Below are positions 4,280-43,156 of a DNA stretch of 64,000 nucleotides, in pieces. This DNA comes from an uncultured Acidobacteriota bacterium (GTDB taxonomy: Bacteria; Acidobacteriota; Vicinamibacteria; Vicinamibacterales; CAVVIG01). The stretch spans positions 148,436-212,435 of the forward strand of contig CAWGDD010000007.1 of NCBI GenBank assembly GCA_963821285.1, given 5' to 3'. The position numbers were made by a program, and so were the translations under genes. The first letter of the stretch is position 1. Every line of letters begins with the position of its first letter. The notes below the pieces were generated by a model. The model saw nothing but the letters and a program-made list of their open reading frames with translations. It searched no databases and had not been told where the DNA came from.

Positions 4280-4918
4280 TTACTGTGACAGCTGGAAGTT
4301 GACCGTCACCGTCATGATCACCGGCACCGCGATGCCGTTCAGCAGCGTCGGCGTGAACCTCCACCGGCGGACTGCGTCGAGCGCCGCCGCATCGAGCAGC
4401 GGAATGGACCGCAGCACGACGGCCGACTCCACGTTCCCGCGGGTGTCGATCGTTGCCTCGATGATGACGACGCCCTGCACGTGCGACGCGCGTGCGAGTT
4501 GGGGATACTGTGGCGCGACGTGAACAAGCTTTGACGGAGGCCGAACCAGGCCGCCCGGCCTGATTGGTTCCTGCGGCCGTGGCGGAGGAGGCGCTGGCAA
4601 TGCGTCCGGAACGCCGACGCCGTCGATCGCTCCCGTGCCCGACGTTTCGATGCCCGACACCAGCGGACCGGCGACAGCGCCGTCTCGCGCCGAGTCCGGT
4701 GCGACGCCCGTCGGCGCGACGAGCGGCGCGAGCTCCGGCGAGGCCGCTGAGGCTGGCGCGGGCGGGCCAGCCCCACGCGTGCGCGGCGCCCGTGGCAGCT
4801 CGATGTCCTGCAGAGTGGCCAGCCGTGGGCTCTCGGTGAATGCGAGCACTTCGCGCGGCATCGGCCAGTTGGCGATTGGCGACCACCAGGGCGCCGTGCC
4901 GAGCAGCCCCAGCACCAC
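4280..4918 (-). CDS. TonB-family energy transducer (Pro-rich linker plus TonB C-terminal domain)
   Basis: C-terminus reads VHVAPQYPQLARASHVQGVVIIEATIDTRGNVESAVVLRSIPLLDAAALDAVRRWRFTPTLLNG, preceded by a proline-rich spacer. The N-terminus may really begin at MRRKPSVLL (4967) and join through a further +1 indel near 4940. Confidence 0.75.
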   Translation of the reverse strand: MVLGLLGTAPWWSPIANWPMPREVLAFTESPRLATLQDIELPRAPRTRGAGPPAPASAASPELAPLVAPTGVAPDSARDGAVAGPLVSGIETSGTGAIDGVGVPDALPAPPPPRPQEPIRPGGLVRPPSKLVHVAPQYPQLARASHVQGVVIIEATIDTRGNVESAVVLRSIPLLDAAALDAVRRWRFTPTLLNGIAVPVIMTVTVNFQLSQ

Positions 4919-13765: not shown

Positions 13766-15013
13766 CTACCGATGCGTCACCAGCATCAGCACCGTCAGCA
13801 GCACCATCACCACGACCGTCGTCCAGGCGATGGTGTTGAAGCTGCGTGAGTTCGTGTAGCTGCCCATCAGCTCGCGGTCGTTGGTCAGCAGCAGCATGAA
13901 CACGAGCACGAGCGGCAGCACGATGCCGTTGGCCACCTGCGACAGCACCGATACGTAGACGAGCGGCAGCCCCGGCACGAGCAGCACGGCGGCGCCGAGC
14001 ACGATGATCACCGTGTAGAGCCAGTAGAACACCGGCGCCTCGCGGAACTTCTTGTCGAGGCCCGACTCGAAGCCGAGGCCTTCGCACACCGCGTACGCCG
14101 TCGAGATCGGGAGGATCGACGCCGCGAACAGCGAGGCGTTGAAGAGGCCGGCGGCGAAGAGCAGGTAGGCGTACTCGCCGGCGAGCGGCCGGAGGGCCTG
14201 TGCGGCGTCCGCCGCGCTGCCGATGTCGTGATGGCCGTTGGCGTAGAGCGTGGCCGCGCAGGCGACGATGATGAACCACGCGACGATGTCGGTGAAGATG
14301 CACCCGAGGATCACGTCCCACCGTGACGCGGCGTACTGCCTGGCGGTGATGCCCTTCTCGACGATCGAGGCCTGCAGGTAGAACTGCATCCACGGTGCGA
14401 TCGTGGTCCCCACGAGGCCGATCACCATGTAGAGGTAGCCGTAGTTCCGGATCCCCGCCGCTTCGGGCCGCGTCACGGTGGCGAAGGCCGCCGCCTTCCA
14501 GTCCGGATGCGCGAGCAGTCCGGCGATGATGTATGCGACGTAGAACGCCGACGCGGTCAGGAAGATCTTCTCGATGCTGGCATAAGTGCCGCGGACCACG
14601 AGCAGCCAGACGACGAACGCCGCCAGCGGCACCACGATGTACCGCGACAGCCCGAACAGCTCGAGGCTGCTCGCGATGCCCGCGAACTCGGCGACGACGT
14701 TGCCGAAGTTCGTCACGATGAGCGTCACCATCACGATGAACGTCAGCCGGAACCCGAACTCTTCCCGGATGAGATCGCTCAACCCCTTGCCGGTGACGGC
14801 GCCCAGCCGCGACGCCATCTCCTGCACCACGATGAGCGCGATCGTGATCGGGATCATCGTCCAGAGCAGCGAGTAGCCGAACTGCGCGCCGGCCTGGGAG
14901 TACGTGAAGATGCCGCCCGCGTCGTTGTCGACGTTGGCGGTGATGAACCCGGGCCCGATGACGGCCAGCAGGAGCAGCAGCCGGGTCTTCCAGTGCTTCA
15001 GCGTGGACCGCAT
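13766..15013 (-). CDS. NRAMP/SLC11-family transporter with NRMT-like (Mg2+-type) substitutions in the metal site
   Basis: 415 aa. TM1 GPGFITANVDNDAGGIFTYSQAGAQFGY (DAGG in place of DPGN). TM6 GLVGTTIAPWMQFYLQ (T..A-P-W in place of A..M-P-H). Confidence 0.75.
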   Translation of the reverse strand: MRSTLKHWKTRLLLLLAVIGPGFITANVDNDAGGIFTYSQAGAQFGYSLLWTMIPITIALIVVQEMASRLGAVTGKGLSDLIREEFGFRLTFIVMVTLIVTNFGNVVAEFAGIASSLELFGLSRYIVVPLAAFVVWLLVVRGTYASIEKIFLTASAFYVAYIIAGLLAHPDWKAAAFATVTRPEAAGIRNYGYLYMVIGLVGTTIAPWMQFYLQASIVEKGITARQYAASRWDVILGCIFTDIVAWFIIVACAATLYANGHHDIGSAADAAQALRPLAGEYAYLLFAAGLFNASLFAASILPISTAYAVCEGLGFESGLDKKFREAPVFYWLYTVIIVLGAAVLLVPGLPLVYVSVLSQVANGIVLPLVLVFMLLLTNDRELMGSYTNSRSFNTIAWTTVVVMVLLTVLMLVTHR

Positions 15014-15015
15014 GG

Positions 15016-16254
15016 CTACCGTCTGTGGCGCAGCATCGTGATGACGTCGTCCGCCGTGATGATGCCGGCGAGCCGTTCGTGCTCGTCGAGGACGGCCAGG
15101 GTGACGAGGTTGTACTTGTCGAAGAGCGCCGCAACGTCATCATCCGGCGTGTCGGCCGCGCAGGTAACGGCCGGCTCGACCAGCTGAGAGAGGGGCGTGG
15201 TGGGCGGCGACAAAGCGATCTTCACGAGCGGCACGGCGCCCACGATCTTGTAGGCGACGTTGTAGAGGTAGACCGTGGCGACGGCCTCGCGGCTGCCTTC
15301 GAACTGCCGCAGCGCTTCGATTGCGTCGTCCACGATTCCGTGATCGCCGACGGCGACGAACTCGGTCGTCATCCGGCCGGCGGCGGTGTGCTCGCCGAAC
15401 TCCAGGAGCTGAGTGACCTCCTGGCGTTCCTCCGGCTCCATCTCCTTGAGGATGGCGCCCGACCGATCTTCCGGCAGCTCGCCGAGCAGGTCGGCCGCGG
15501 CGTCGGGGTCCATTTCCTCGACGATGTCGGCCGCGCGGTCGGAGTCCAGCGACTCGACGATCGAGACCTGGACTTTCGGGTCGATCTCTTCGAGCGCCTC
15601 GGCGGCGACCTCCTCGTCGAGGGTCTCGAAGACGGCCTCGCGCTCGGCGTGCGGCAGGTCCTCGACGATGTTGGCGATGTCCGCCGGGTGGAGCTTCGAG
15701 AGGCCTTCGTAGACGATCTTCAGCTTGACGCGGCGCGCCGGGTCCGTTTCGAGCAGATCGACGTACGCCCACGGGATGACTCGCGGCGGAATGCGGTCGA
15801 GCAGCGTGCGCAGGGTGAACGACGGCACGATGCCCTTCGTGAGACGCCGGATGGCGCCGCGGGCGCCGACATCGACGGCGACCACGCTGAGGACGACGTG
15901 GCTGTTCAGGGGTGTGGAGTCGAGCTCGACGTCGTTGACGCGGACGACCTTTCGCCCGTGGACGTCGATGATCTGCTGATCGAGCAGGTCGCGCTTGAGG
16001 AGCAGGACGCCGTCAGAGGCTGCGTACTTCTCCCAGGCCGAGCCATCGTCGTCTGTGCGGACGATGGCCCCGCACGACTTGAGCACTGTGGACGGGAGCA
16101 CGCGCTCGCCGTCTGATGTCTTGACGATTAGATAGGCGATCCGGGTGGGGTGGTCCTGCGGGGCGATCGCGATCTCGCGCACGCGTCCGAGAACGGCGCC
16201 GGTGGCACCGCGCACGGGAGCGCCGAGGAGTTCGGAGAGCGCGACGAGCGACAT
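15016..16254 (-). CDS. Soluble PRC-barrel + MgtE N-terminal domain + CBS-pair protein (no membrane pore domain)
   Basis: 412 aa. MgtE_N-like acidic helices LHPADIANIVEDLPHAEREAVFETLDEEVAAEALEEIDP...DIVEEMDPDAAADLL, then a CBS pair (...LAVLDEHERLAGIITADDVITMLR). It ends 2 nt before the transporter gene. Confidence 0.7.
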   Translation of the reverse strand: MSLVALSELLGAPVRGATGAVLGRVREIAIAPQDHPTRIAYLIVKTSDGERVLPSTVLKSCGAIVRTDDDGSAWEKYAASDGVLLLKRDLLDQQIIDVHGRKVVRVNDVELDSTPLNSHVVLSVVAVDVGARGAIRRLTKGIVPSFTLRTLLDRIPPRVIPWAYVDLLETDPARRVKLKIVYEGLSKLHPADIANIVEDLPHAEREAVFETLDEEVAAEALEEIDPKVQVSIVESLDSDRAADIVEEMDPDAAADLLGELPEDRSGAILKEMEPEERQEVTQLLEFGEHTAAGRMTTEFVAVGDHGIVDDAIEALRQFEGSREAVATVYLYNVAYKIVGAVPLVKIALSPPTTPLSQLVEPAVTCAADTPDDDVAALFDKYNLVTLAVLDEHERLAGIITADDVITMLRHRR

Positions 16255-16299: not shown

Positions 16300-17532
16300 T
16301 CAATGCCGGTGAGCCCTCGAATCGTGCGGCTGCGGACGATAGCGCACGAACACGTGGAACGAGTGCGGCGAGGTGCCGTAGTAGTCGATCATGTTGTCCG
16401 GCACGTGGTAGAACGTCGCGTCCCCGCCGAGGCCGAGACGCCCCCATGGTTTGTTTACGACGTCGTGGACATAGCCGAACGTCGCGGCCGCGACGTGTGA
16501 AATGCGATGAAAGGACACGAAGCCGGGCGGATCCGGAAAGCCCAGGTCGAGCAGATCCTTGGCCGAGGCTTCTGCGCGTCCGTAGAAGTGCCCGCGCCCG
16601 GCGATCGGCGTGTCCCATTCGAAGAGATATCCGTCGAGGGGACCGTGGATCTCGCGGTTCTCGCCCCAGGCGAGCGTGGCAGCGACGGGATGCGACCGCA
16701 CCGTTCCGTTGAATTCGATTGAGGCCGTGATGCGCGGGATGTCGTACGGCTCGAACCATGCGGGCTCGTGCAGAATGCCGCCCGACACCTGGGCCATCCA
16801 CGGACCGCGCTGCCATTTCCCTTGAACCGACCAGGAGTCGAGCCACGGCCGGCCGATGTCCAGCCGGTTCTCGTCCGGCTCCTGTCCACGGAACCACGAC
16901 GCCAGGAACGTCAGGGCCCCCGCCTCGACGCCCCCCGTCACCACGCCCGGTGTGATGTGCGTGGAATCGAGTTGGTGGTGGGTGAGCGGGGCCTGCGGGT
17001 TGTTGCGGGCCGACTCGCGGTGCATGAACGGCGTCGGCCCGAGCGCGGCGGGCCCGACCAGGTCGGCTGACATGATGAGCGTGGCGTGTGGCCCGCGCAG
17101 CCGGTAGGTGGCGCCGAGCTCCATGAACAGATCGTGCGGATGCTGGCGATCGATGAGCGGGCCCCTTTGGTACGACTCGCCAGTCTGGAACAGCTGCGGG
17201 GAGCCGATGCCGCGCATGGTGAACGGCTCGAGCGAGATCATGCCCTCCACCTGAAACGCTCCGCGGCCGAGTCGCCGCGCGCCGTGCAGCATGAACCAGT
17301 TCTGCGACTCCCAGGCCGACTGATCTTTGAACTCGCGCTGCTGGTAGTTGTAGCCGAAGAACACGTTGGCGTCGGGCGACCACGACCACGTGGGCAATTC
17401 CGCCGGCGTGGCGCCGCGCGCGGTGTCGTGCACGTGATCGGCGGGGGAGGTTGCGGGCTCTTGCGCCGCCGCCGGGGATGCGAGGGCCCGGAGGAAGAAG
17501 GGCATGAGGACGACGAGCGGCGGCAGGCGCAT
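16300..17532 (-). CDS. Secreted His-rich protein, putative outer-membrane beta-barrel
   Basis: Start set at MRLPPLVVLMPFFLRALASPAAAQEP (signal peptide) because the upstream part of the track ORF overlaps the -24/-12 promoter. Alternating beta-strand-like pattern, DRQHPHDLFMELG. No family recognised. Confidence 0.45.
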   Translation of the reverse strand: MRLPPLVVLMPFFLRALASPAAAQEPATSPADHVHDTARGATPAELPTWSWSPDANVFFGYNYQQREFKDQSAWESQNWFMLHGARRLGRGAFQVEGMISLEPFTMRGIGSPQLFQTGESYQRGPLIDRQHPHDLFMELGATYRLRGPHATLIMSADLVGPAALGPTPFMHRESARNNPQAPLTHHQLDSTHITPGVVTGGVEAGALTFLASWFRGQEPDENRLDIGRPWLDSWSVQGKWQRGPWMAQVSGGILHEPAWFEPYDIPRITASIEFNGTVRSHPVAATLAWGENREIHGPLDGYLFEWDTPIAGRGHFYGRAEASAKDLLDLGFPDPPGFVSFHRISHVAAATFGYVHDVVNKPWGRLGLGGDATFYHVPDNMIDYYGTSPHSFHVFVRYRPQPHDSRAHRH

Positions 17533-17560: not shown

Positions 17561-17575
17561 CGCAAGGGAAGTGCC
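17561..17575 (-). promoter_or_regulatory. Sigma-54 (-24/-12) promoter candidate: cGGCAC-ttccc-TTGCG
   Basis: Minus strand reads gcggcGGCACttcccTTGCGtggc, with exact GG-N10-GC spacing. The -12 element is 30 nt upstream of ATG 17532. Confidence 0.55.
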
Positions 17576-17697
17576 GCCGCTCGCCGGCAAAAGCTGCGAG
17601 GTTCGACGGAAGGCTATCCTGCCAGCTTACGCGTTCAGTAAGGTATTGCGGAACGGGTAAGCGGGGGGATCGTATCGGGGGCTGGGGACAGGAGAAC

Positions 17698-18153
17698 ATG
17701 ACGCTGAGCCGACTGTCGATCGTCGCGCTGCTTGCCGTGACCGTGGCGTGTGCAAGCGAGCCCCCGAGTCAGCCGCCGACGCCGGCGGCTCCGACGCCGC
17801 CGGTCGTTCCGGCGGGTCCGCCGAAGCCGCTCGAGGGCGCCACGATCACGATTACTTCGTCCGGCTTGCGGCTCGACAGCGCCTCAGCGGCTGCGTATTC
17901 CATCAACGATCTGCACGTCTATGCCGGTGCACGTCTCACCTTCGTCAACAGCGACAATGATCCGCACGACATGCTGTCGGGTCCGCTGGGATTGCACAAC
18001 GACTGCCCCGAAATCAACATCGCCGGCTACCTGGTGCCCGGCCAGTCACGCGCGACCGATCCGCTCACGCATCTCATGCCCTGCGAGTTTCACGATCACA
18101 CGCACGAAGGCAATCCGGCGTTCGGCGGCCGGGTGACGGCCGAACCGCGATAG
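17698..18153 (+). CDS. Lipoprotein with cupredoxin-like domain (paralog of 19942..20370)
   Basis: Lipobox LLAVTVAC. LTFVNSDNDPHDMLSGPLGLHNDCPEINIAGYLVPGQSRATDPLTHLMPCEFHDHTH aligns residue-for-residue with the paralog. Confidence 0.55.
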   Translation: MTLSRLSIVALLAVTVACASEPPSQPPTPAAPTPPVVPAGPPKPLEGATITITSSGLRLDSASAAAYSINDLHVYAGARLTFVNSDNDPHDMLSGPLGLHNDCPEINIAGYLVPGQSRATDPLTHLMPCEFHDHTHEGNPAFGGRVTAEPR

Positions 18154-18212
18154 ACGATCCGGCCGGGCGGCGGTCTTGACCGTCCGGACAGGTCGGGATT
18201 ATGCTCGTTCTT

Positions 18213-18232
18213 GAAAGTGAGACTCATTCTCA
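18213..18232 (+). promoter_or_regulatory. Fur-box-like operator upstream of the PepSY gene
   Basis: gaaagTGAGActcatTCTCA. 14/19 matches to GATAATGATAATCATTATC and 12/15 to the 7-1-7 core. AT-rich island 56 nt upstream of ATG 18288. Confidence 0.45.
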
Positions 18233-18287
18233 TCTATGTCTCGCTTCTCGATTCCTCTACCTAAAACTGACGTCGCCGGGCCGATCG

Positions 18288-19445
18288 ATGAAACCGTTTC
18301 GTACCGCTCTGTTCTGGCTTCACCTGGCCGCCGGCGTCGCTGCGGGCCTCGTCATCCTCGTGATGTCGGCGACCGGCGCTGTGCTGGCGTTCAAGCCGCA
18401 GATTCTCGACCGCGTGGACCGCGCCGTGCGGTTCGTCGATCCCGCCGGCACGCCGCGGCTCGAGCCGTCGCGGATCCTCGCGGCGGCTCAGGCTGCCCGG
18501 CCCGACGGCCAGCCGGCGACGCTGGTGCTCGACCGCGATCCGTCGGCGTCGGCCGCCGTCGGCTTCGGCCGCGACGGCACGCTGTACGTGAACCCCTACA
18601 CGGGCGCCCAGCTTGGCGCGGGCTCGGCCGTCGCCCAGCAGTTCTTCCGCGCCACTGAAGACCTGCACCGCTGGCTGAGTTTCAGCGGCGACAACCGCGA
18701 TACGGGGCGCTCGCTGACCGGTGCATCCAACCTGGCGTTTCTGGGCCTGGCCATCACGGGCCTGTTCCTCTGGTGGCCGCACAAGTGGCTCCCGCAGCAC
18801 CTGACGGCGATCCTGCTCTTCCGGCGCACAGCCACAGCGCGCGCCCGCGACTTCAACTGGCACAACGTCATCGGCTTCTGGTGCGCGCCGGTCCTCATCG
18901 TGCTGACGGCGACGGGCGTCGTGATGTCGTACCCGTGGGCGAACCGGCTGCTGTATCAGATGGCCGGCAGCCCGCTGCCCGCCGCACGGGGTCCGCAGGG
19001 TCTGCGAGGTCCACAGGATTCACAGAGGCCGCGCGTTGATGTCGATGCGCTCTGGGCCCGCGCCGAACAGCAGCTGCCGACCTGGCAGACCGTGACCATG
19101 CGGCTGCCCGAACGGCCGCGCGCGCCCGTGTCGTTTACAATGAACGACGCCCGGCACTGGAACACGTTCGCGCGATCGCAGCTGACCCTGGACGCCGCAA
19201 CCGGCGACATCGTCCGCTGGGAGCCGTACGCCGAGAACAGCCGCGGCCAGAAATGGCGCGGCTGGGTCCGGTTCGGGCACACGGGTGAACTGGGAGGCAT
19301 CGTCGGCCAGACGCTCGCGGGCATCGCGTGCGTGGGGGGCGTGGTGCTCGTCTGGACGGGCCTGGCCCTGGCATTTCGGCGGCTCGTGGGCTGGCAGCTC
19401 TGGCGCCGAATGAACACGGAAGCGGCTCGACGCGTTCGAGCCTAG
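18288..19445 (+). CDS. PepSY-associated TM-helix protein (PiuB/FoxB-like putative ferric reductase)
   Basis: MKPFRTALFWLHLAAGVAAGLVILVMSATGAVLAF..., HRWL, FGHTGELGG, four TM segments. Confidence 0.7.
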   Translation: MKPFRTALFWLHLAAGVAAGLVILVMSATGAVLAFKPQILDRVDRAVRFVDPAGTPRLEPSRILAAAQAARPDGQPATLVLDRDPSASAAVGFGRDGTLYVNPYTGAQLGAGSAVAQQFFRATEDLHRWLSFSGDNRDTGRSLTGASNLAFLGLAITGLFLWWPHKWLPQHLTAILLFRRTATARARDFNWHNVIGFWCAPVLIVLTATGVVMSYPWANRLLYQMAGSPLPAARGPQGLRGPQDSQRPRVDVDALWARAEQQLPTWQTVTMRLPERPRAPVSFTMNDARHWNTFARSQLTLDAATGDIVRWEPYAENSRGQKWRGWVRFGHTGELGGIVGQTLAGIACVGGVVLVWTGLALAFRRLVGWQLWRRMNTEAARRVRA

Positions 19446-19461
19446 ACTGGGAGACAGCGGA

Positions 19462-19941
19462 ATGAAGGGCAACGACGCGATCATCGCAAAGTTGAACGAG
19501 GCGCTCCGCGAGGAGCTGACCGCGATCAATCAGTATTTCGTCCACGCGGAGATGTGCCACAACTGGGGCTATCACCGGCTGGGTAACTACATCAAGAAAC
19601 AGTCGATTGGCGAGATGAAGCACGCTGAGGAGATCCTCGAGCGCATCCTGTTCCTGGACGGGATCCCGTCGATGCTGCCGCTGCCGCTGACGATTGGCGC
19701 CGACGTCAAGGCCCAGATCGAAAACGATCTGAAGCTCGAGCTGAACGCGACGGTGATGTACAACGCGTCGGTCAAGGCGGCGCGCGACGCGGGCGACAAC
19801 GGGTCCGCCGACCTGTTCGAGCGGCTGCTCAAGGACGAGGAGGAACACGTCGACTTCCTCGAGGCGCAGATGCACCAGATCGGACAGCTCGGCTACGAGC
19901 GCTATCTCGGGCAGCAGCTCGATGGCGGCGAGGCGAAGTAG
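19462..19941 (+). CDS. bfr: Bacterioferritin
   Basis: MKGNDAIIAKLNEALREELTAINQYFVHAEMCHNWGY...EMKHAEEILERILFLDG; 159 aa. Confidence 0.9.
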   Translation: MKGNDAIIAKLNEALREELTAINQYFVHAEMCHNWGYHRLGNYIKKQSIGEMKHAEEILERILFLDGIPSMLPLPLTIGADVKAQIENDLKLELNATVMYNASVKAARDAGDNGSADLFERLLKDEEEHVDFLEAQMHQIGQLGYERYLGQQLDGGEAK

Positions 19942-20370
19942 CTACCGAACGGTAATGCTCCCCTGAAGCCCCGCCACATCGGCCATGATGTGGTCGTGGT
20001 AGCCGCAGATCCGCGCGGTGGTGAGGTTGCCGGTCTGCCGCGACTGGCCGGGGTTGAGGAACCCCGCTTGCGAGATTGCCGGACACTCGGTGTGCTCCGG
20101 GTGCGGGTTGGACTCCATGTCGTGCTGCCGGTTGTCGTTGTTGATGAACGTCACCTGGCTGCCGAGCGGTACGATGATGTCCTTCGGCGTGGCGACGTTG
20201 TTCACGATCGTGATCGTGGTCGTGTTCACGGCGCCCGCCGGGGTCGTCGGCGGAGTCACCGGCGACGGCCCGGCCGGGTTGCTGTTGGTGTTGCTGCTCC
20301 CGCCGCACGCGGCCAGCAGCAGCGCCAGCCCGCACGACGCGAAGAACCCGCCCGCCATCCGTGATCGCAT
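19942..20370 (-). CDS. Lipoprotein with cupredoxin-like domain (possible type-1 Cu ligand set H/C/H/M)
   Basis: Lipobox LLLAAC. VTFINNDNRQHDMESNPHPEHTECPAISQAGFLNPGQSRQTGNLTTARICGYHDHIM. Confidence 0.55.
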   Translation of the reverse strand: MRSRMAGGFFASCGLALLLAACGGSSNTNSNPAGPSPVTPPTTPAGAVNTTTITIVNNVATPKDIIVPLGSQVTFINNDNRQHDMESNPHPEHTECPAISQAGFLNPGQSRQTGNLTTARICGYHDHIMADVAGLQGSITVR

Positions 20371-20390
20371 GATGTCACCCCTGATCGGAA

Positions 20391-20440
20391 CGCGGGGCTG
20401 AAAGCCCCGCGCTACAGTAGTGCGGCCCTTTCAGGGCCGC
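20391..20440 (-). terminator. Two GC-rich stem-loops downstream of the DUF5777-like gene
   Basis: cgcggggctgaaagccccgcg (20391-20411) and gcggccctttcagggccgc (20422-20440). No U-tract. Confidence 0.35.
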
Positions 20441-20449
20441 CGCCAGAGT

Positions 20450-21304
20450 TCAGTAGAACTTCCTCGTGAGGTTGAATCCCAGATACCAGTCTGTGCCTTC
20501 CGTGCCGTTCACTCTCGTGGTGCGCGTGCCGCCCCGGGCGATCTGCCCGAACGTGGATGCGAACGAATCGGTGAAGTTGAGCTGGAAGATGTGGCCACCC
20601 GCCCGCTTCTCGATGGCGAAGCCGCCGTGGTTGACGCCCGGCGCGTAGCCGGCGCGGGGCGCGTACTCCCCGACCAGATAGACGGTGTCGAGCACGCGGA
20701 CGCGGGCGCCGAAACCGGTCACGAACGTGTCGTTCTCCGGTGTCGACGAATCGTACAGGTTGGCGTGGTGAATCCAGATCGGCTGGACGTACAGCGCGGC
20801 ACGTTCGGCGATCCGCCTCGACACGATCACGCCGAGCACCGGCTGCGACTGGCTGTCGACGCCGGACCGGCCGACGTCGCTCCAGTCCACCGCGAGCAGT
20901 GCCGACGCCTCGATCGGCGACGTCTTGCCCTGGCGCAGGAACCCGTACTGGCCGAACAGCTCGATGGTCTTGTCGCTGGCGCGATGCACGCCGACCTCAG
21001 TGTTCGGCATGATCCCGTAGCGGTACTCGAGCCCGATGCGTGCGCCGAAGTCCATGCCGAAGGCGTCGGCGGCAAGGCTGTTCGGACAGAGATCGCAGCT
21101 GAGCGGGCGGGTGAATCGGTGCGTCAGGCGGAACGCGCTCCCGTTGACGGGGAGCCGCAGCGACGTCGGCAGGCTGACCAGCGTGAAGTCGGGTTCCGCC
21201 AGCTTCAGCACCCGGTCGTCCCCCTCGTCCGTGTTCTGGGCGTAGCCGGCCGTCGCGGCGAGCAGCGAGAAGAGCAGTGTGCAGAGAATGCGGGTGTTTG
21301 TCAT
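20450..21304 (-). CDS. DUF5777-like outer-membrane beta-barrel protein
   Basis: Signal peptide MTNTRILCTLLFSLLAATAGYAQ, LTHRF..., IGLEYRYGI, C-terminal ...LGFNLTRKFY. Confidence 0.55.
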   Translation of the reverse strand: MTNTRILCTLLFSLLAATAGYAQNTDEGDDRVLKLAEPDFTLVSLPTSLRLPVNGSAFRLTHRFTRPLSCDLCPNSLAADAFGMDFGARIGLEYRYGIMPNTEVGVHRASDKTIELFGQYGFLRQGKTSPIEASALLAVDWSDVGRSGVDSQSQPVLGVIVSRRIAERAALYVQPIWIHHANLYDSSTPENDTFVTGFGARVRVLDTVYLVGEYAPRAGYAPGVNHGGFAIEKRAGGHIFQLNFTDSFASTFGQIARGGTRTTRVNGTEGTDWYLGFNLTRKFY

Positions 21305-21379
21305 GGGTTGTTCGTGTCGAACGTCATGGTCGGGTGAATGAGTCTGATGGCCGGAGGAGTTCCACGTCGCAGCCGTCTA

Positions 21380-21395
21380 CGCAAGCCGGATGCCG
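21380..21395 (-). promoter_or_regulatory. Sigma-54 (-24/-12) promoter candidate: cGGCAT-ccggc-TTGCG
   Basis: Minus strand reads acggcCGGCATccggcTTGCGtag, with correct spacing. About 78 nt upstream of ATG 21304 and directly downstream of the NtrC-type activator gene. Confidence 0.5.
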
Positions 21396-21493
21396 GCCGT
21401 TGCCGGGACCCTTCGTCGGGAACGCCCGGCGGGACGGCGCCCGGTTTACAGAAGCCGTAACGGGTTTCCGTCCCCGTAATATGTCTTCCGGGC

Positions 21494-22861
21494 TCAGTCG
21501 AGACGGTACTTGGCCAGATAGTACGACAGCGCGCGCTGGCTGATCCCCATCAGTTCCGCGGCATCCTTCTTCACGCCGCCCGCGCTCTCGATGGCCCGCC
21601 GGATGGTCTCGCGCTCGACCCACTCGATGTTCTGCCGGAGTTTCAGCGAGGGGAGAGTGGTTGCCTGCGGCGCCGCCGCGCCCAGCACCGAGACGGCGCG
21701 GGCGCCGATGACGTTTCCCGTCGAAAGCACGACGGCGCGTTCGATCGTGTTCTCGAGCTCGCGGACGTTGCCCGGCCAGTCGTACTGCTGCAGGCCGGCC
21801 ATCACGCTGTCTTCGGGGCGATCGATGCGGCGTCCGACGCGCTGCGCGTGTTTCCGGATGAAGTGCTCGACGAGCGACGGGATGTCGTCGCGCCGTTCCC
21901 GCAGCGGCGGGATTTCGATCGGGATCACGTTGAGGCGGTAGAAGAGGTCTTCCTGGAACTTGCCGTCGGCCACCATCTGTCGGAGATCGCGGTTGGTGGC
22001 GGCGATGACGCGCAGGTCGACCTTCTCGGTCCGCTCCGACCCGAGCGGCTCGAACTCGCGCTCCTGCAGGACGCGCAGGAGCTTGCTCTGCAGCGGCGGG
22101 CTCATGGTGCCGATTTCGTCGAGGAAGATCGTGCCGCCGTCGGCGAGCGCGAACTTGCCTTTCTTGGTGGTCGTCGCCCCGGTGAACGCGCCGCGCACGT
22201 GGCCGAAGAGCTCCGACTCGAGCAGCGTTTCGGGAATGGCGGCACAGTTGACCTTGATGAGCGGCATGTCGCGCTGGGCGCTGCGGTCGTGGATGGCGCG
22301 GGCCACCAGTTCCTTGCCGGTGCCCGTTTCGCCGGTGATGAGGACGGTGCTCTTCGTCTCGGCCACCAGCTCCGCGCGCCGGATCACTTCCTCCATGGCC
22401 CGGCTGCGCCCGATGATGCCGTAGTGGTCGAACTGCTCGTCGCGCTCGCTGAGCAGATAGCGGTGCTCCGTCCGAAGGCGCTGATGATCGAGCGCGCGCC
22501 GTACGACGACGATCAGCTCGTCGATCTCGAACGGTTTGATCAGGTAGTCGAGCGTCCCCAGCTTCATCGCTTCGATGGCGCTCTCGACGGTCGCGTGCGC
22601 CGTCATCATCAGGATCTGCGCGCGTTCGCCCTCCGGCGCCGACCCGATGTACTCGCGAATCAGGTCAAGCCCGCTCAGCTCGGGCATCATGTTGTCCACC
22701 ACGAGCAGGTCGAACGGGCGCTCGGCCAGCAGCCGCTGCGCCTGACGTGGGCTGGTCGTGTCCACGACGGCGTGGCCGGCCTCGCGCAGGGCGCGTCCGA
22801 GCGACTTCAGGATCTTCTCTTCGTCATCAACGATCAGGATCGAGCCGCGGCCGTGGGTCAT
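21494..22861 (-). CDS. Sigma-54-dependent response regulator (NtrC family: REC + AAA+ + HTH)
   Basis: ILIVDDE...DLLVVDNMMP receiver, GETGTGKE Walker A, GAFTGA loop (HVRGAFTGA), C-terminal HTH AAELMGISQRALSYYLAKY. Confidence 0.9.
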   Translation of the reverse strand: MTHGRGSILIVDDEEKILKSLGRALREAGHAVVDTTSPRQAQRLLAERPFDLLVVDNMMPELSGLDLIREYIGSAPEGERAQILMMTAHATVESAIEAMKLGTLDYLIKPFEIDELIVVVRRALDHQRLRTEHRYLLSERDEQFDHYGIIGRSRAMEEVIRRAELVAETKSTVLITGETGTGKELVARAIHDRSAQRDMPLIKVNCAAIPETLLESELFGHVRGAFTGATTTKKGKFALADGGTIFLDEIGTMSPPLQSKLLRVLQEREFEPLGSERTEKVDLRVIAATNRDLRQMVADGKFQEDLFYRLNVIPIEIPPLRERRDDIPSLVEHFIRKHAQRVGRRIDRPEDSVMAGLQQYDWPGNVRELENTIERAVVLSTGNVIGARAVSVLGAAAPQATTLPSLKLRQNIEWVERETIRRAIESAGGVKKDAAELMGISQRALSYYLAKYRLD

Positions 22862-22865
22862 GGGG

Positions 22866-24774
22866 TTATCCGGAGACGCCTGCGGGGAGGCTGATGCGGA
22901 TCTCGGTGCCCGTACCGGGTGCGCTGTTCACGCCGATCGTGCCGCCGAGCCCTTCGACGATGTTCTTGGCGATGGCCAGCCCCAGGCCCGTGCCGCTGCG
23001 CTTCGTCGTGAAGTAGGGCTCGAACACCTGGGGCAGGTGAGCCGGGTCGATGCCCGCGCCGCGGTCGGCGATGACGATCGTGACGCGGCCATCCTTCGCC
23101 AGCGTGCTCAGCGTCACAAGCGGCTCGTTGGTCGTGGCTGGTGGCTCGTGGCTCGTGACGGCTGACTGCCGACTGCCGACGGCTGACTGCCGACTGTCGA
23201 CTGCCGACTGCGGACTGCCGACTGCCGGCTGCTGACTGCCGACTGCCGGCTGCTGACTGCCGACTGCCGACTGCTGACTGTCGACGGCATGGCGCGCGTT
23301 GACGAGCATGTTCACGAGTGCAATCCGCAGCCGTTCGGCGTCCGTCGTGACGGGCGCGGCGCCCGGGTCGAGTTCCAGGTGCACGGCGGCACCCGGCCCC
23401 GAGGCCACAGACGCCGCTGCCGACTCGCGGCAGAGCACGTTCAGATCCGCCGGCGCGAGTTCGAAGCGGATGGGCCGCGCGAAGTCGAGGACCTCGTTCA
23501 CGATCCGGTTCAGCCGCTCGACCTCCTCGTCGATGTCGGCCACCGCCTCGCGCATGGCCGCCCGGCTCACGTCCGGCTGGCGCAGCGCGTGCAGCGATCC
23601 CTTGATGATCATCAGCGGGTTCCGCACTTCGTGGGCGATGACGGTGGACAGACGGCCGAGCGACGACAGCCGTTCCTTCTGCGACATCTCGCGCTGGAAG
23701 CGCGCGATCGAGTCCGTCAGGGTGTTGAACGTCGTGGCCAGCAGCTGGGCGTCCTCGTCGTGCCAGCGGCGGCCCTCGCCGACGGCGATCTTGCGCGTCA
23801 GATCGCCGGTGGCGGCCACCTCGCGCATGACGTCGGTGATTGCCGCCAGCGGCCTCGTGATCGTGCGGGCGACCGCGAAGCTGAGGAGCGTCGCGAGCAG
23901 CACGGCGACGATGGCGGTGACGGCGAGACCCGTGTGGATGGCGTCGAGCGAGCGGAGTTGCTCGGTGCGCGATCGCAGGATCAGCGGCCACCGGCGCTGC
24001 GCGGCTCCCGGGCTGCGCCGATCCGAGCGCCAGGGCCAGCGCGACGTACTCGTCGGAGCCGAGCGTCACCGTGGAGACCCCCGAGCCGTGGAGTCGGGCC
24101 GCCAGCGCGTGGTCGTACTCGCGCGGCAGGGTCGTCGTCAGCACATTGGCGCCCACTGCGAAGGCGATGTCGCTGCCGGTAATCGCCTTGAGCTGGCTGG
24201 CCAGTGCGTCGTTGAGGAGGAAGCCCACGCTGACCGACCCTAGAATCTGCGGCTGCGTGAGCCCGATGACGATCGGCACCGTCACCACCTGCAGGATGCC
24301 GTCCGGCTCGGGGAGCAGGTCCACGGTTTCGTGTCCGAGCAGCGCGTCCCGCACGGCGGGCCAGTCGCCCGCGACGAGACCGGCCGGGGCCGAGTCTCCC
24401 AGCGCCGCGAGCACGCGGCCCGTCCCGTTCGTCACGACCAGCAGGTTGGCGGATTTCAGGGGCTCCTGATAGTCGCGGAGGTTGTCTTCGACCGTGGGCG
24501 GATCGTTCGTGAGGACGGCGGCCTTGAGCTTGGGCAGGTCGGCGATGAGCCGGGCCATCACGGTGTAGGTGTCGATGCGGGTCTTGCGAAGCTGGTCGAC
24601 GAGCGCACCGGTGGCGCGGATCTCGCGCTGCAGGGCACTCTCGGCCTCGCGCGTGACCCGCTGGTTGACGACGTAGATCGCGGCGACGATCGAGAGCACC
24701 GCGAGCAGCGCGCTCGCCAGGAAGATTCGTCCCCGGAGGGAGCTGACGAGCGTTGCCCGAAGAACCGCGTTCAT
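22866..24774 (-). pseudogene. Sensor histidine kinase (periplasmic sensor, HAMP, HisKA, HATPase_c), disrupted as assembled by a +1 frameshift near 23990-24012
   Basis: N-terminal frame MNAVLRATLVSSLRGRIFLASALLAVLSIVAAIYVV...LALALGSAQPG. The C-terminal frame continues (QRRWPLILRSRTEQLRSLDAIHTGLAVTAIVAV)LLATLLSFAVARTITRPL...STVIAHEVRNPL...DRGAGI...GTGLGLAI. Confidence 0.85.
23134..23287. repeat. Heptanucleotide tandem repeat, consensus CCGACTG, 22 units (17 core units 23162-23280), in-frame inside the kinase ATP-binding domain
   Basis: Counted units: gtggctg gtggctc gtggctc gtgacgg ctgactg ccgactg ccgacgg ... ctgactg tcgacgg. Translated as SQQSAVG SQQPAVG SQQPAVG SPQSAVD SRQSAVG SRQSAVT between the N box (NMLVNARHAV) and the G1 box (DRGAGI). 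Confidence 0.9.
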
Positions 24775-24787
24775 GCCCAACGACGGA

Positions 24788-25234
24788 TTATAGCCCCCGG
24801 TTTTCGAGCACGTAGCGGATGACCAGCGTGCCGGGCACAAGCGCGGTGAAGGTGCGGTTAGGGTAGGGCGATACGTAGGTCATCGACACCAGCACGCGGC
24901 CGTCGCGCAGCCATCCGCGCGCGACGCGCGCCCGGCGGGCGCCGTACAACCTCGCGAGCGCCGAGCGATCGTACGGCCCCGATGTGCCGAACGCGTCCAG
25001 CGGGTCCAGGGCGTCCACGGTGCCGACCTGCGCGCCACGCGTGCTCATGTCCGCCCGCACCACGTCTTCGAGCGGCGACAGGGTCGTGCACACATGGTAG
25101 GTCCCCAAGAGGGGGCGCCGTGGCGTGAAGAGCGCCGTCAGCGCCGTGTCGCAGTCGTACGCCGGCCCCGGTCCAGGCGGCCTGGCGGGAGCGGCCAGCT
25201 CAGCTAGTAGAATGAAGAGGATGGCGTATATCAT
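24788..25234 (-). CDS. Hypothetical secreted protein, first gene of the kinase/regulator operon
   Basis: From Met 26 of ORF 24788..25309: [22 protein letters not shown]..., no family recognised. It ends 14 nt before the kinase start. Confidence 0.4.
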   Translation of the reverse strand: MIYAILFILLAELAAPARPPGPGPAYDCDTALTALFTPRRPLLGTYHVCTTLSPLEDVVRADMSTRGAQVGTVDALDPLDAFGTSGPYDRSALARLYGARRARVARGWLRDGRVLVSMTYVSPYPNRTFTALVPGTLVIRYVLENRGL

Positions 25235-25502
25235 CTGCGAGCCCTGCGTGGGCACCAAGGATACGGCCTGCGTGGATGTGTGTCCCGTGGACTGCATCCA
25301 CCCGCGCAAGGACGAGGCCAGCTTCGCGGCGGCCGAGATGCTCTATATTCACCCGGACGAGTGCATCGATTGCGGCGCCTGCGTCCCGGCGTGCCCGGTC
25401 GAGGCCATCTTCTCGCTCGACGAGACGCCGCACAAGTGGGCGGGCTTTATTGACAAGAACGCCTCATACTATGATATGATCGTGGTTGAGGTTAGAGGTT
25501 AG
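25221..25502 (+). CDS. Ferredoxin (FdxA-like, 3Fe-4S/4Fe-4S type)
   Basis: [26 protein letters not shown]...[20 protein letters not shown]. The tail is encoded by a gaggtta duplication. Confidence 0.85.
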
Positions 25503-31430: not shown

Positions 31431-31636
31431 AGGCGGTTACCTCTGAGTAGGTAAACGAATCTTACTGTGACGCCCCGTGGCCTGCAAACGCCGATCCCGG
31501 CAGATCGGGTCTGCGGGCGCCGTTCTGTCCTCAGTCCGGAGCAGAGGCGGGCCCGGTCTGACGCCACGAGGGTACAGGGTATACTCCGGAATAATGGAGG
31601 GCGCGCCCGGGTTTACTGACATGGCGCCCATGGAGG

Positions 31637-41744: not shown

Positions 41745-42203
41745 CTACCAGGCGCCCCCTGCGCGGTGCTGCTTCTTGTGCGGCACTCGAAAGTGCAGCG
41801 ATGGCGGCGTGTTGCGGTGATGTCGCCGGGCCTCACCGACCAGGTCGAGGAGGTCCGCGAGGGTCACGATCCCGACCGCCTTCCCCTTGTCGACGACGAT
41901 CAGGCACCCGATCGAATGCCCGCGCATCAGGTTGGCGGCCTTGTGCACCGACGTGTCCGGGCCCACGGTCACGACATGCCGCGACATGTAGTCGGCAAGG
42001 ACGACCCTTCTGGCCTCATTGCCGCGACGCGCACCTCGCCGGAGATCCCGGGCCGATACGACGCCGACCAGCTCAGCCCCTTCCTGAACCAGAAGGTGGT
42101 GGATCTGTTTCGATCGCATGCGCTCGAGTGCGCTCGCGGCGGCCGTGCCCGGCCTCATCGTCTGCACCCCGGCCGTCATGATTTCAGAGACTGTCGTTTT
42201 CAT
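41745..42203 (-). CDS. CBS-pair domain protein
   Basis: VSEIMTAGVQTMRP...HHLLVQEGAELVGVVSARDL...CLIVVDKGKAVGIVTLADL. Confidence 0.8.
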   Translation of the reverse strand: MKTTVSEIMTAGVQTMRPGTAAASALERMRSKQIHHLLVQEGAELVGVVSARDLRRGARRGNEARRVVLADYMSRHVVTVGPDTSVHKAANLMRGHSIGCLIVVDKGKAVGIVTLADLLDLVGEARRHHRNTPPSLHFRVPHKKQHRAGGAW

Positions 42204-43156
42204 GTTGTTCCAGTTGGCAACAACGATGCCAGAACGTGCTCACGAATTCAACGATCTGGTTCTCCGCCCAGTACCCGTCGTCTTCTGCCGACGCCGGGCC
42301 GACGAAGCCGCAGTGGCCGCCGTGCTCGCAGATGGCAAGCCGGACGCACGGGTTGCCGGTGAGCTTCGCATCGTGGAACGGCTGCGACGGAACGAACGGG
42401 TCGTCGTCGGCGGTGATGACGAGCGCGGGGACGCCGATGCGCTCGACGATGCGCATCGCGCTCGCGCGGTGGTAGTAGTCCTCGGCGCCGGCGAAGCCGA
42501 AGTAGGGCGCCGTATAGGCCTCGTCGAACTCGCGCACGGTCCTGATCTGGCGCAGCTTGCTCAAATCGAAGCGCCCCGGCCAGAAGCGGTCCTTGCGTCG
42601 CATCCGCCGCTTGAGATCCTTCACGAAATTCCACTGGTAGAGCCAGTTGTCCGGCTGTTCCAGCGCCTTGACGCACTCGCCGATCTCGATGATCGGCGAC
42701 ACGGCGGCGACGCCGAGCAGCGCTCGACGGCGGCGCGTCGCCGTACTCGGCGGCCAGCTTCAGCGCGAGGTTGCCGCCGAGCGAATACCCGGCGACGGCG
42801 ATTGCCGTCAGGCCATCGACCGCGATCAGCTCCGCGATGACATGCGCGGCGTCGGCGGTGAGGCCCGAGTGGAAGAGCCCGGCGGACAGATGTTCGGTGT
42901 CGCCGCAGTTACGCTGGTTCAGGCGCACGACGTTCATGCCGCGCGCGAACGCCTTCGCGGCGATGCCGCGCATGTAGTGCGCGTCGCTCGATCCGTTCAG
43001 TCCGTGCAGCGCGATGATCGTGGGACGCGTCCAGGGCTCCGCCTGCCAGTGGCAGTCGGCGACGACGCGCGCGTCGTGGTCGACGTCGAAGTAACGCCGG
43101 ACCGGCGGCGGCAGGCGCGGGAAGTAGCGGGGATTACCCCAGCTGTAGAGCGTCAT
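42184..43156 (-). pseudogene. Alpha/beta hydrolase (YheT-like), disrupted as assembled by a +1 frameshift near 42722-42727
   Basis: IIALHGLNGSSDAHYMRG...VAGYSLGGNLALKLAAEYGDAPPS | ALLGVAAVSPIIEIGECVKALE...ITADDDPFVP...CEHGGHCGF. Confidence 0.75.

Follow-up and report, generated by a model that had tools for sequence, protein, structure and literature searches.

A 64-kb stretch of DNA from an uncultured bacterium of the order Vicinamibacterales, phylum Acidobacteriota (contig CAWGDD010000007.1, positions 148,436 to 212,435; hereafter, the window), carries two matched motifs of the -24/-12 type, P1 and P2, downstream of genes for a histidine kinase and an NtrC-type response regulator. On the evidence of sequence and conservation, P1 and P2 are very likely real sigma-54 promoters, and we consider it probable that a sigma-54 regulon conserved in Vicinamibacterales is located here, in which the adjoining sensor system would control envelope barrels and a metal importer. 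The two motifs stand far above chance because they are paired with a palindrome at equal spacing, are conserved, and hold the top two matrix scores. The promoters and the associated sites are the following (window coordinates).

17561..17575, minus strand: P1, predicted sigma-54 type -24/-12 promoter, GGCACttcccTTGCG, also written GGCACTTCCCTTGCG; matrix score 19.2, rank 2 in the window
21380..21394, minus strand: P2, predicted sigma-54 type -24/-12 promoter, GGCATccggcTTGCG, also written GGCATCCGGCTTGCG; matrix score 22.6, rank 1 in the window
17627..17641, minus strand: P1 proximal enhancer palindrome (putative), TTACTGAACGCGTAA; kept in loci L001-L004
17646..17660, minus strand: P1 distal degenerate enhancer site (putative), TTACCCGTTCCGCAA, 19 bp upstream of the proximal copy
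21446..21460, minus strand: P2 proximal enhancer palindrome (putative), TTACGGCTTCTGTAA, TTAC-N7-GTAA
21465..21479, minus strand: P2 distal degenerate enhancer site (putative), TTACGGGGACGGAAA, 19 bp upstream of the proximal site

Two -24/-12 motifs share a palindrome at identical spacing

The GG-N10-GC geometry is exact at both sites, with P1 reading CGGCAC-N5-TTGCG and P2 reading CGGCAT-N5-TTGCG. Both motifs are intergenic and sense-oriented to the downstream gene: the C of the -12 TTGC is separated by 28 nucleotides (nt) from the ATG of the gene at 16300-17532 in the case of P1, and by 76 nt from the ATG of the gene at 20450-21304 in that of P2. A first-pass annotation of this DNA had placed the motifs at 17561-17575 and 21380-21395, each ahead of a signal-peptide beta-barrel gene, and the second just past an operon encoding a small protein, a periplasmic-sensing kinase and a GAFTGA regulator. 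Both motifs, with their geometry, were confirmed in the sequence on the minus strand, except that the second ends at 21394, one base off; the two gaps and the predicted barrel folds bear out what was said of the downstream genes, and the domain matches agree with the description of the operon. The statement that the promoters bracket the two-component system did not hold: both are found downstream of that system, P2 immediately past the activator gene and P1 about 4 kb farther along.

The motif count is not significant when taken alone. Indeed, GGCAY-N5-TTGCR occurs twice in the window against 0.77 expected, and two or more occurrences were found in 18 of 100 shuffles; likewise, TGGCAC-N5-TTGCW with two mismatches has 19 matches in the window against 20.9 expected, which is chance level. 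The palindrome behaves otherwise: TTAC-N7-GTAA is present in exactly two copies in the 64 kb, against 0.01 expected, and none of 100 shuffles reached two. Both copies begin exactly 66 nt upstream of the GG of the P1 or P2 motif, and the full span, taken from the initial T of the palindrome to the C of TTGC, measures 80 nt at either promoter. The two upstream regions have a common architecture, TTAC-N15-TTAC-N7-GTAA, and an alignment of 66 enhancer sites carries at that offset a degenerate distal-site signal, TT(A/T)C-N7-GTAA. Proximal and distal sites are 19-21 bp apart and are centred at about -84 and -103.

The first-pass annotation had also called for a scan with an RpoN-type matrix. We trained the matrix on 55 unique sites of other genomes, leaving the window out, and applied it to both strands of the window (128 kb) and to the loci described below. 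P2 and P1 came out on top in the window, where the next-best score was 14.9, and about five scores of 19 or more per 2.86 Mb of strand were found in the loci away from these operons. Sigma-70-like promoters and terminators, searched between 13.5 and 25.6 kb, were at or below shuffle expectation, and none was found ahead of either barrel gene.

The motif and the palindrome are conserved across loci

The gene downstream of P2 encodes a protein of the DUF5777 family, of which thousands of relatives are detectable. A DUF5777 profile search, with one genome per species, yielded 80 loci, each taken with a 10-kb flank on either side and nearly all from metagenome-assembled genomes of Acidobacteriota/Vicinamibacterales, with a summed length of 1.43 Mb (2.86 Mb of strand). 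In 62 of the 80 loci, the DUF5777 gene has the kinase and activator genes as syntenic neighbours, DUF5777 identity going down to about 45%; four loci without this synteny are truncated contigs. L009, a metagenome-assembled genome of Luteitalea, likewise shows kinase, regulator, palindrome, promoter, cytochrome and DUF5777 in this order.

Within the subset of 60 loci having a full-length orthologous regulator, a -24/-12 motif is located at most 260 nt past the regulator stop codon in 54 (background in the same loci, 0.057 per 260 nt), and the palindrome is found upstream of the motif in 51. Reciprocally, 69 palindromes were found in the whole 1.43 Mb, and 64 of them have a -24/-12 pattern 20-160 nt downstream; all these 64 combinations of palindrome and promoter aim at a DUF5777 gene, at a gene for the porin-like barrel P410 that follows P1 in the window, or at a Cup-type gene. 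The logo of 61 motif sites reads cGGCA(C/T)-N5-TTGC, and at the three degenerate positions of the search pattern the counts are C 57 versus T 4, A 60 versus C 1, and T 61 versus C 0. Thus, the sites are nearer to the sigma-54 consensus than the pattern demanded, and they are not an artefact of it.

Both P1 and P2 are kept in L001-L004, in which the P1 promoter and palindrome have spans of 80-82 nt. In the more distant genome L083, a P1-type promoter, GGCAG-N5-TTGC, comes after two perfect palindromes that are spaced by 21 bp, and the span is 91 nt. In L071 and L077-L079, a sigma-54-like site is located ahead of DUF5777, with no adjoining two-component system and no exact palindrome. The lack of the exact palindrome in these four loci, where the two-component system is not adjacent, fits a palindrome belonging to this regulator. 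In L017, L061 and L063, the palindrome and the promoter are present without an adjoining regulator.

The spacing between palindrome and promoter is helically phased

The distance between the palindrome and the promoter ranges across lineages from 71 to 163 nt and clusters near 71, 81, 91, 103, 113, 125, 134 and 144. In the Rayleigh test, R reached its peak of 0.51 at a period of 10.5-10.75 bp (nominal p about 1e-7). When the clade of the window was left out, R was 0.456, above 0.406, which is the 99.9% point of the maximum R for uniform random spacings. Spacing steps of about 10.5 bp are as expected of an enhancer-bound activator that has to face the closed complex.

The sensor operon encodes a predicted periplasm-sensing kinase and a GAFTGA regulator

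The operon upstream of P2 comprises three genes.

24788..25234, minus strand: small conserved protein of about 148 amino acids (aa), first gene of the sensor operon
22866..24774, minus strand: histidine kinase with a periplasmic dCache_3-like sensor, HAMP, HisKA and HATPase_c (domain matches); frame broken
21494..22861, minus strand: NtrC-type enhancer-binding response regulator with a receiver, an AAA+ domain (GAFTGA) and a Fis-type HTH_8 (Pfam domains); GAFTGA at 22192

The regulator matched Response_reg (1.2e-23), Sigma54_activat (E = 4.7e-74) and HTH_8 (1.1e-8) in Pfam, and its GAFTGA motif is intact, as it is in 58 of the 62 orthologues. The protein scores below the NCBIfam cut-off of each named equivalog: 466 versus 714 for AtoC, 419 versus 559 for NtrC, 414 versus 760 for ZraR, and 351 versus 763 for GlrR.

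In the comparison with L001-L003, one extra C near 23986 puts the kinase out of frame past the periplasmic sensor and ahead of the second transmembrane helix/HAMP, and it is either an assembly error or the mark of a genuine pseudogene. The kinase gene also contains an imperfect tandem repeat of the heptanucleotide GACTGCC, with about 17 copies at window positions 23164-23285, within the ATP-binding domain. This repeat encodes SAVGSQQ-like repeats in the loop between the N and G1 boxes; L001 and L002 have it in other lengths, and the loci from L003 onward lack it. The repeat unit being 7 nt long, a change of a single unit would shift the kinase frame.

The small protein has no Pfam or NCBIfam family match, and in at least 15 related loci a homologue, with 37-82% identity, comes before the kinase gene. 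In the stretch 25218-25322, the upstream part of its open reading frame (ORF) is antisense to the 5' end of a divergent ferredoxin gene, and its start codon is uncertain. A weak sigma-54-like site, TGGCCTcgtccTTGC (score 13.4), is located at 25303-25322 within the ferredoxin gene, and may represent either a promoter for autoregulation or a coincidence of the coding sequence.

The P2 operon combines a DUF5777 barrel with redox proteins

Three elements follow P2 in the window, in the order of transcription.

21324..21365, minus strand: remnant of a plastocyanin-like blue-copper lipoprotein gene, 13 codons plus stop; L001-L004 have the gene complete between promoter and DUF5777
20450..21304, minus strand: DUF5777 outer-membrane barrel of 284 aa with a signal peptide and 12-14 predicted strands (PF19089, E = 3.4e-28; mean predicted local distance difference test, pLDDT, of the model 81)
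19942..20370, minus strand: cupredoxin-like lipoprotein CupB with conserved His and Cys, last P2 gene; downstream of DUF5777 in 44 of 54 operons

The Pfam score of the DUF5777 protein is 99 bits, against a gathering threshold of 23.1. Its structural model has about 14 strands, and the nearest solved folds are those of OmpG, NanC, KdgM-like porins, FapF and an oligogalacturonate-specific porin (VhGalP); a sequence search of solved structures gave nothing significant for either the DUF5777 protein or CupB.

In L001-L004, the promoter is followed after 15-17 nt by a gene for a plastocyanin-family lipoprotein (Copper-bind, E = 2.8e-5), which in the window has undergone an internal deletion of about 300 nt. 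The first P2 gene being deleted, the 76-nt gap before DUF5777 is best read as a deletion scar. In L001 and L002, the blue-copper stop codon overlaps the DUF5777 start codon (ATGA), an arrangement by which, judging from the sequence, the two genes are translationally coupled. Strict pattern matching on 54 operons assigned the first P2 gene to a monohaem CxxCH lipoprotein in 20, to a CuA-like Cupredoxin_1 protein in 13 and to a type-1 copper protein in five.

In 14 loci (L004, L006, L007, L010, L021, L024, L030, L034, L044, L047, L048, L059, L070 and L072), the ATG of a signal-peptide protein is located only 13-17 nt past the C of the -12 element. With this geometry, the predicted 5' untranslated regions would be roughly 2-6 nt long, too short to hold a Shine-Dalgarno sequence, and the sigma-54 transcripts would be nearly leaderless. 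The remaining loci have leaders of 25-45 nt with GGAG-like sites.

The P1 operon ends with an NrmT-type transporter

Three genes follow P1 on the same strand, and a divergent group of genes is located on the other side of the P1 intergenic region.

16300..17532, minus strand: His-rich porin-like outer-membrane barrel P410, 410 aa, with a signal peptide (model pLDDT 78, predicted template modelling score, pTM, 0.78)
15016..16254, minus strand: stand-alone MgtE-N-like cytoplasmic fragment (PRC, MgtE_N and CBS; domain matches)
13766..15013, minus strand: NrmT-type NRAMP of the Mg2+/Mn2+ importer clade with a DAGG motif; best solved relative 7QIA (EleNRMT)
17698..19941, plus strand: divergent neighbours, namely cupredoxin-like CupA, a PepSY_TM protein and bacterioferritin; the P1 intergenic region is common to both sides (context only)

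P410 has no match among the Pfam and NCBIfam families, but its own family counts more than 4000 detectable members, in which many histidines are invariant. Its model is an all-beta barrel that resembles the 16-strand porins Omp32, OmpF and OccK (probability 1.0, template modelling score 0.5-0.55). The transporter aligned with 7QIA, the Mg2+ transporter EleNRMT, at E = 1.8e-112, versus about 1e-32 for MntH structures. The canonical metal-site motif of NRAMP proteins is DPGN; the window protein and EleNRMT have in common the motif 'ndaggi' in the alignment. The gap between the MgtE-N-like gene and the NRAMP gene is 2 nt. No riboswitch or other RNA matched Rfam at the gathering threshold in the window, and thus no M-box was found there. 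The genes past the NRAMP gene encode a TetR regulator and lipoyl synthase, which we judged to be outside the P1 operon.

The divergent pair of CupA and P410 genes is kept in L082-L084 (in L082-L083 at around 4360-4900). On the CupA side of L084 (1-5000), it is followed by genes for a 432-aa protein, CopC, CopD, PepSY_TM and ferritin. This neighbourhood hints at a link with copper or iron.

Kinase codons imitate the motif, and other candidate sites are weaker

Several of the high scorers away from the operons are within histidine kinase genes, at the G2 box, where the GTGLGL codons imitate the motif. This was seen at the 3' ends of the kinase genes in L030, L040, L044, L047, L056, L059 and L074, in which the G2-box (G-T-G-L-G-L) codons read GGCACCGGCCTTGG/C. 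High-GC G2-box codons are, indeed, a systematic source of false positives for sigma-54 promoter scans.

The first-pass annotation had proposed a third match at 31481-31500. The letters are present, and the site has a matrix score of -1.7, three mismatches to TGGCAC-N5-TTGCW and no palindrome; we rejected it, as it looks like a chance match. Between this site and the start of a gene for a 1068-aa protein, the sequence GTAAGATTCGTTTACCTACTCAGAGGTAAC (31440-31475, minus strand) holds TTAC/GTAA cores arranged otherwise, as GTAA-N7-TTAC and TTAC-N10-GTAA. The 1068-aa product comprises a TolB-like beta-propeller and a peptidase, and has a weak TamL-like (barrel) C-terminal match.

A further site, TGGCATcgttgTTGC, is located at 42214-42233 (minus strand; matrix score 13.1), within the 3' end of the preceding ORF. 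A gene encoding tandem CBS domains (41745-42203) starts at 42203, 13 nt past the end of this site, which may be another sigma-54 promoter with the short-leader geometry.

Proposed mechanism

In the mechanism that we propose, the kinase would sense a periplasmic cue and phosphorylate the regulator, dimers of which would occupy the proximal TTAC-N7-GTAA and the degenerate copy 19-21 bp upstream. The regulator would then oligomerise into an AAA+ ring and, through a short DNA loop on a fixed helix face, would open by ATP hydrolysis the closed complex of the sigma-54 polymerase at GGCAY-N5-TTGC. Activation of P2 would switch on the DUF5777 barrel and the cupredoxin-like lipoprotein, preceded in the relatives by a blue-copper protein, a CuA-like cupredoxin or a monohaem lipoprotein as the first product. 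Activation of P1, about 4 kb downstream, would switch on the His-rich porin-like barrel, the MgtE-N-like fragment and the NrmT-type NRAMP. The most likely output, judging from the genes involved, is an envelope-spanning acquisition or handling of divalent metal induced by the periplasmic cue, and the gene complement makes the status of divalent metals (Mn, Mg, Cu or Fe) the candidate cue.

The presence of rpoN is a further assumption of this mechanism. We infer it from the GAFTGA motif in 58 of the 62 orthologues, from the conserved promoters and from the near-universal occurrence of sigma-54 in diderm bacteria with lipopolysaccharide (Francke et al., PMC3162934). As regards the first-pass suggestion of a local sigma-54 regulon that remodels the outer membrane and metal uptake, the regulon is supported comparatively, and the link with metal uptake is supported by the NrmT-type NRAMP that ends the P1 operon; outer-membrane remodelling is speculation.

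A wider reading, which we hold tentatively and regard as rather unlikely, is that of a hitherto unrecognised sigma-54-gated metal pathway of soil Acidobacteria across three compartments, with two branches, one periplasmic sensor and a TTAC-N7-GTAA enhancer code, whose transcripts are near-leaderless in many lineages. One branch could consist of the dedicated His-rich porin, the MgtE-N-like sensor fragment and NrmT, for Mn/Mg import. In the other, the DUF5777 barrel and the haem/copper carriers could form a split porin-cytochrome-cupredoxin module that alters the redox state of metals at the cell surface.

Alternative explanations

Several observations weigh against a conserved regulon with metal-related output. 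Translated in six frames, neither the window (64 kb of the genome) nor the 80 loci showed an RpoN box. The functional reading draws on family membership and gene neighbours only, and the haem/copper redox proteins of the P2 operon are not an obvious fit to a theme of Mg/Mn import. The phasing statistics ignore the shared ancestry among the loci. P1-type sites are patchy: the motif is absent or degenerate ahead of the P410 homologues of L006, L022, L023, L081, L082 and L084, and none was found ahead of the MgtE-N/NrmT genes in L006, L007, L018, L032, L035 and L060. Sigma-54 control of the porin-MgtE-N-NrmT operon is, thus, not universal. This patchiness, as opposed to the widespread P2, suggests that the DUF5777 operon is the core ancestral target and that the porin-NrmT operon joined only in some lineages. 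Finally, the window genome has an interrupted kinase frame and lacks the first P2 gene, and for this reason the system may be impaired there, or the assembly may hold errors.

These last defects raise the possibility, which we consider on balance doubtful, that the regulon is ancestral and real and is decaying or inactive in this genome, with the kinase as a pseudogene and the first P2 gene lost. The extra C that breaks the kinase frame relative to L001-L003, and the internal deletion of about 300 nt that removed a blue-copper gene intact in L001-L004, are what decay would produce. However, P1, P2 and the palindrome of each are intact, as are the regulator, DUF5777, CupB and all of the P1 operon, and codon bias is strong; a single-base indel in a run of C is a typical long-read assembly error; and a promoter leading to DUF5777 without an intervening gene is found elsewhere too, for example in L007, L010 and L018. 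As for the palindrome, we infer that the regulator may bind it, from adjacency and co-occurrence only. The promoters could be real and the palindrome bound by another protein (activator, repressor or architectural), with the adjoining regulator acting elsewhere or through other sites. Coherently with this, L017, L061 and L063 keep the palindrome and the promoter without an adjoining regulator, the perfect palindromes of L083 adjoin a regulator of only 37% identity, and the P1 palindromes, being in a divergent intergenic region, could also serve a CupA promoter. We nevertheless judge such another binder to be distinctly unlikely, as the palindrome comes right after the orthologous regulator gene in 51 of the 60 loci, the four loci with a sigma-54 site and no adjoining two-component system have no exact palindrome, the 10.5-bp phasing to the -24 element is a prediction for an enhancer-binding activator, and a Fis-type HTH_8 dimer suits a 15-bp palindrome.

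A chance origin of both motifs in GC-rich DNA, without any role as promoters, would agree with the non-significant motif count (2 versus 0.77), with the chance-level number of two-mismatch matches to the consensus and with the look-alikes generated by kinase G2-box codons. It is at odds with a palindrome expected 0.01 times per window and paired with both motifs at identical spacing, with the conservation of the motif in 54 of the 60 loci, with the top two matrix scores of P2 and P1 and with the helically phased spacing. On these comparative data, chance appears an extremely improbable explanation, effectively refuted. We thus retain, as the probable reading, a conserved sigma-54 regulon controlled by the adjoining sensor system.

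Significance and comparison with known systems

Our literature search found no paper on an acidobacterial sigma-54 regulon of this type, and none mentioning DUF5777. The system described here would be the first well-supported sigma-54 regulon for Vicinamibacterales, an abundant and mostly uncultured soil order, and it supplies a concrete enhancer consensus together with a spacing rule. It also gives the barrel families DUF5777 and P410, the latter having no Pfam model, a putative regulatory and functional setting, that of metal handling at the envelope. Regarding promoter scans, two lessons can be drawn: motif counts by themselves did not reach significance, the paired palindrome and comparative footprinting being decisive; and the G2-box codons of kinases are a recurrent false positive in GC-rich genomes.

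The regulon appears to be a new case of a well-known switch type, which would work like NtrBC at glnAp2 or like ZraSR. As in NtrB/NtrC at glnAp2, the regulator combines a receiver, an AAA+ domain with GAFTGA and a Fis-type HTH, and putative tandem dimer sites are located roughly 80-110 bp upstream of a GG-N10-GC promoter, with a helix-face dependence that here is suggested by the phasing. The NtrC site is TGCACC-N5-GGTGCA, whereas here the putative site is TTAC-N7-GTAA; furthermore, the kinase is membrane-bound with a periplasmic sensor, and the putative targets belong to the envelope rather than to nitrogen assimilation. In ZraS/ZraR (HydH/HydG) of Enterobacteria, a periplasm-sensing kinase and a sigma-54 regulator induce an adjoining envelope or periplasmic target upon metal. 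Unlike ZraSR, the window has no ZraP-like target and its layout is tandem instead of divergent; the metal cue is putative here.

CbrB, the sigma-54 regulator of CbrA/CbrB in Pseudomonas, has only the TTAC and GTAA cores in common with the window palindrome, its subsites being TGTTAC and GTAACA (PMC6296734). However, CbrB has several F and R subsites in another arrangement and spacing, CbrA is another type of kinase, and the targets are small RNAs and carbon metabolism genes.

As for the P1 operon, MnoP and MntH of Bradyrhizobium are an outer-membrane channel and an inner-membrane NRAMP co-expressed for the uptake of divalent metal. MnoP/MntH are under Mur and Fur-type repression and not under sigma-54, and their likeness to the P1 operon is one of arrangement.

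A counterpart of the last two genes of the P1 operon is found among the operons of MgtE-like fragments and NrmT (PMC4072509; EleNRMT, PMC8806188), which contain the same gene pair with the fragment directly upstream of the transporter. The MgtE-like cytoplasmic fragment is paired with NrmT in, among others, Acidobacterium capsulatum (Shin et al. 2014, PMC4072509), whose NrmT homologue appeared to favour Mn over Mg (PMC4072509). Since the A. capsulatum protein is seemingly Mn-favouring, the substrate of the window NrmT is not fixed to Mg. In Firmicutes, the pair is located behind an M-box riboswitch, whereas in the window it comes after a porin-like gene and behind a predicted sigma-54 promoter. 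Thus, the same fragment/NrmT pair that is under a riboswitch in Firmicutes can, in Acidobacteria, probably sit behind an activator-dependent promoter together with a porin of its own.

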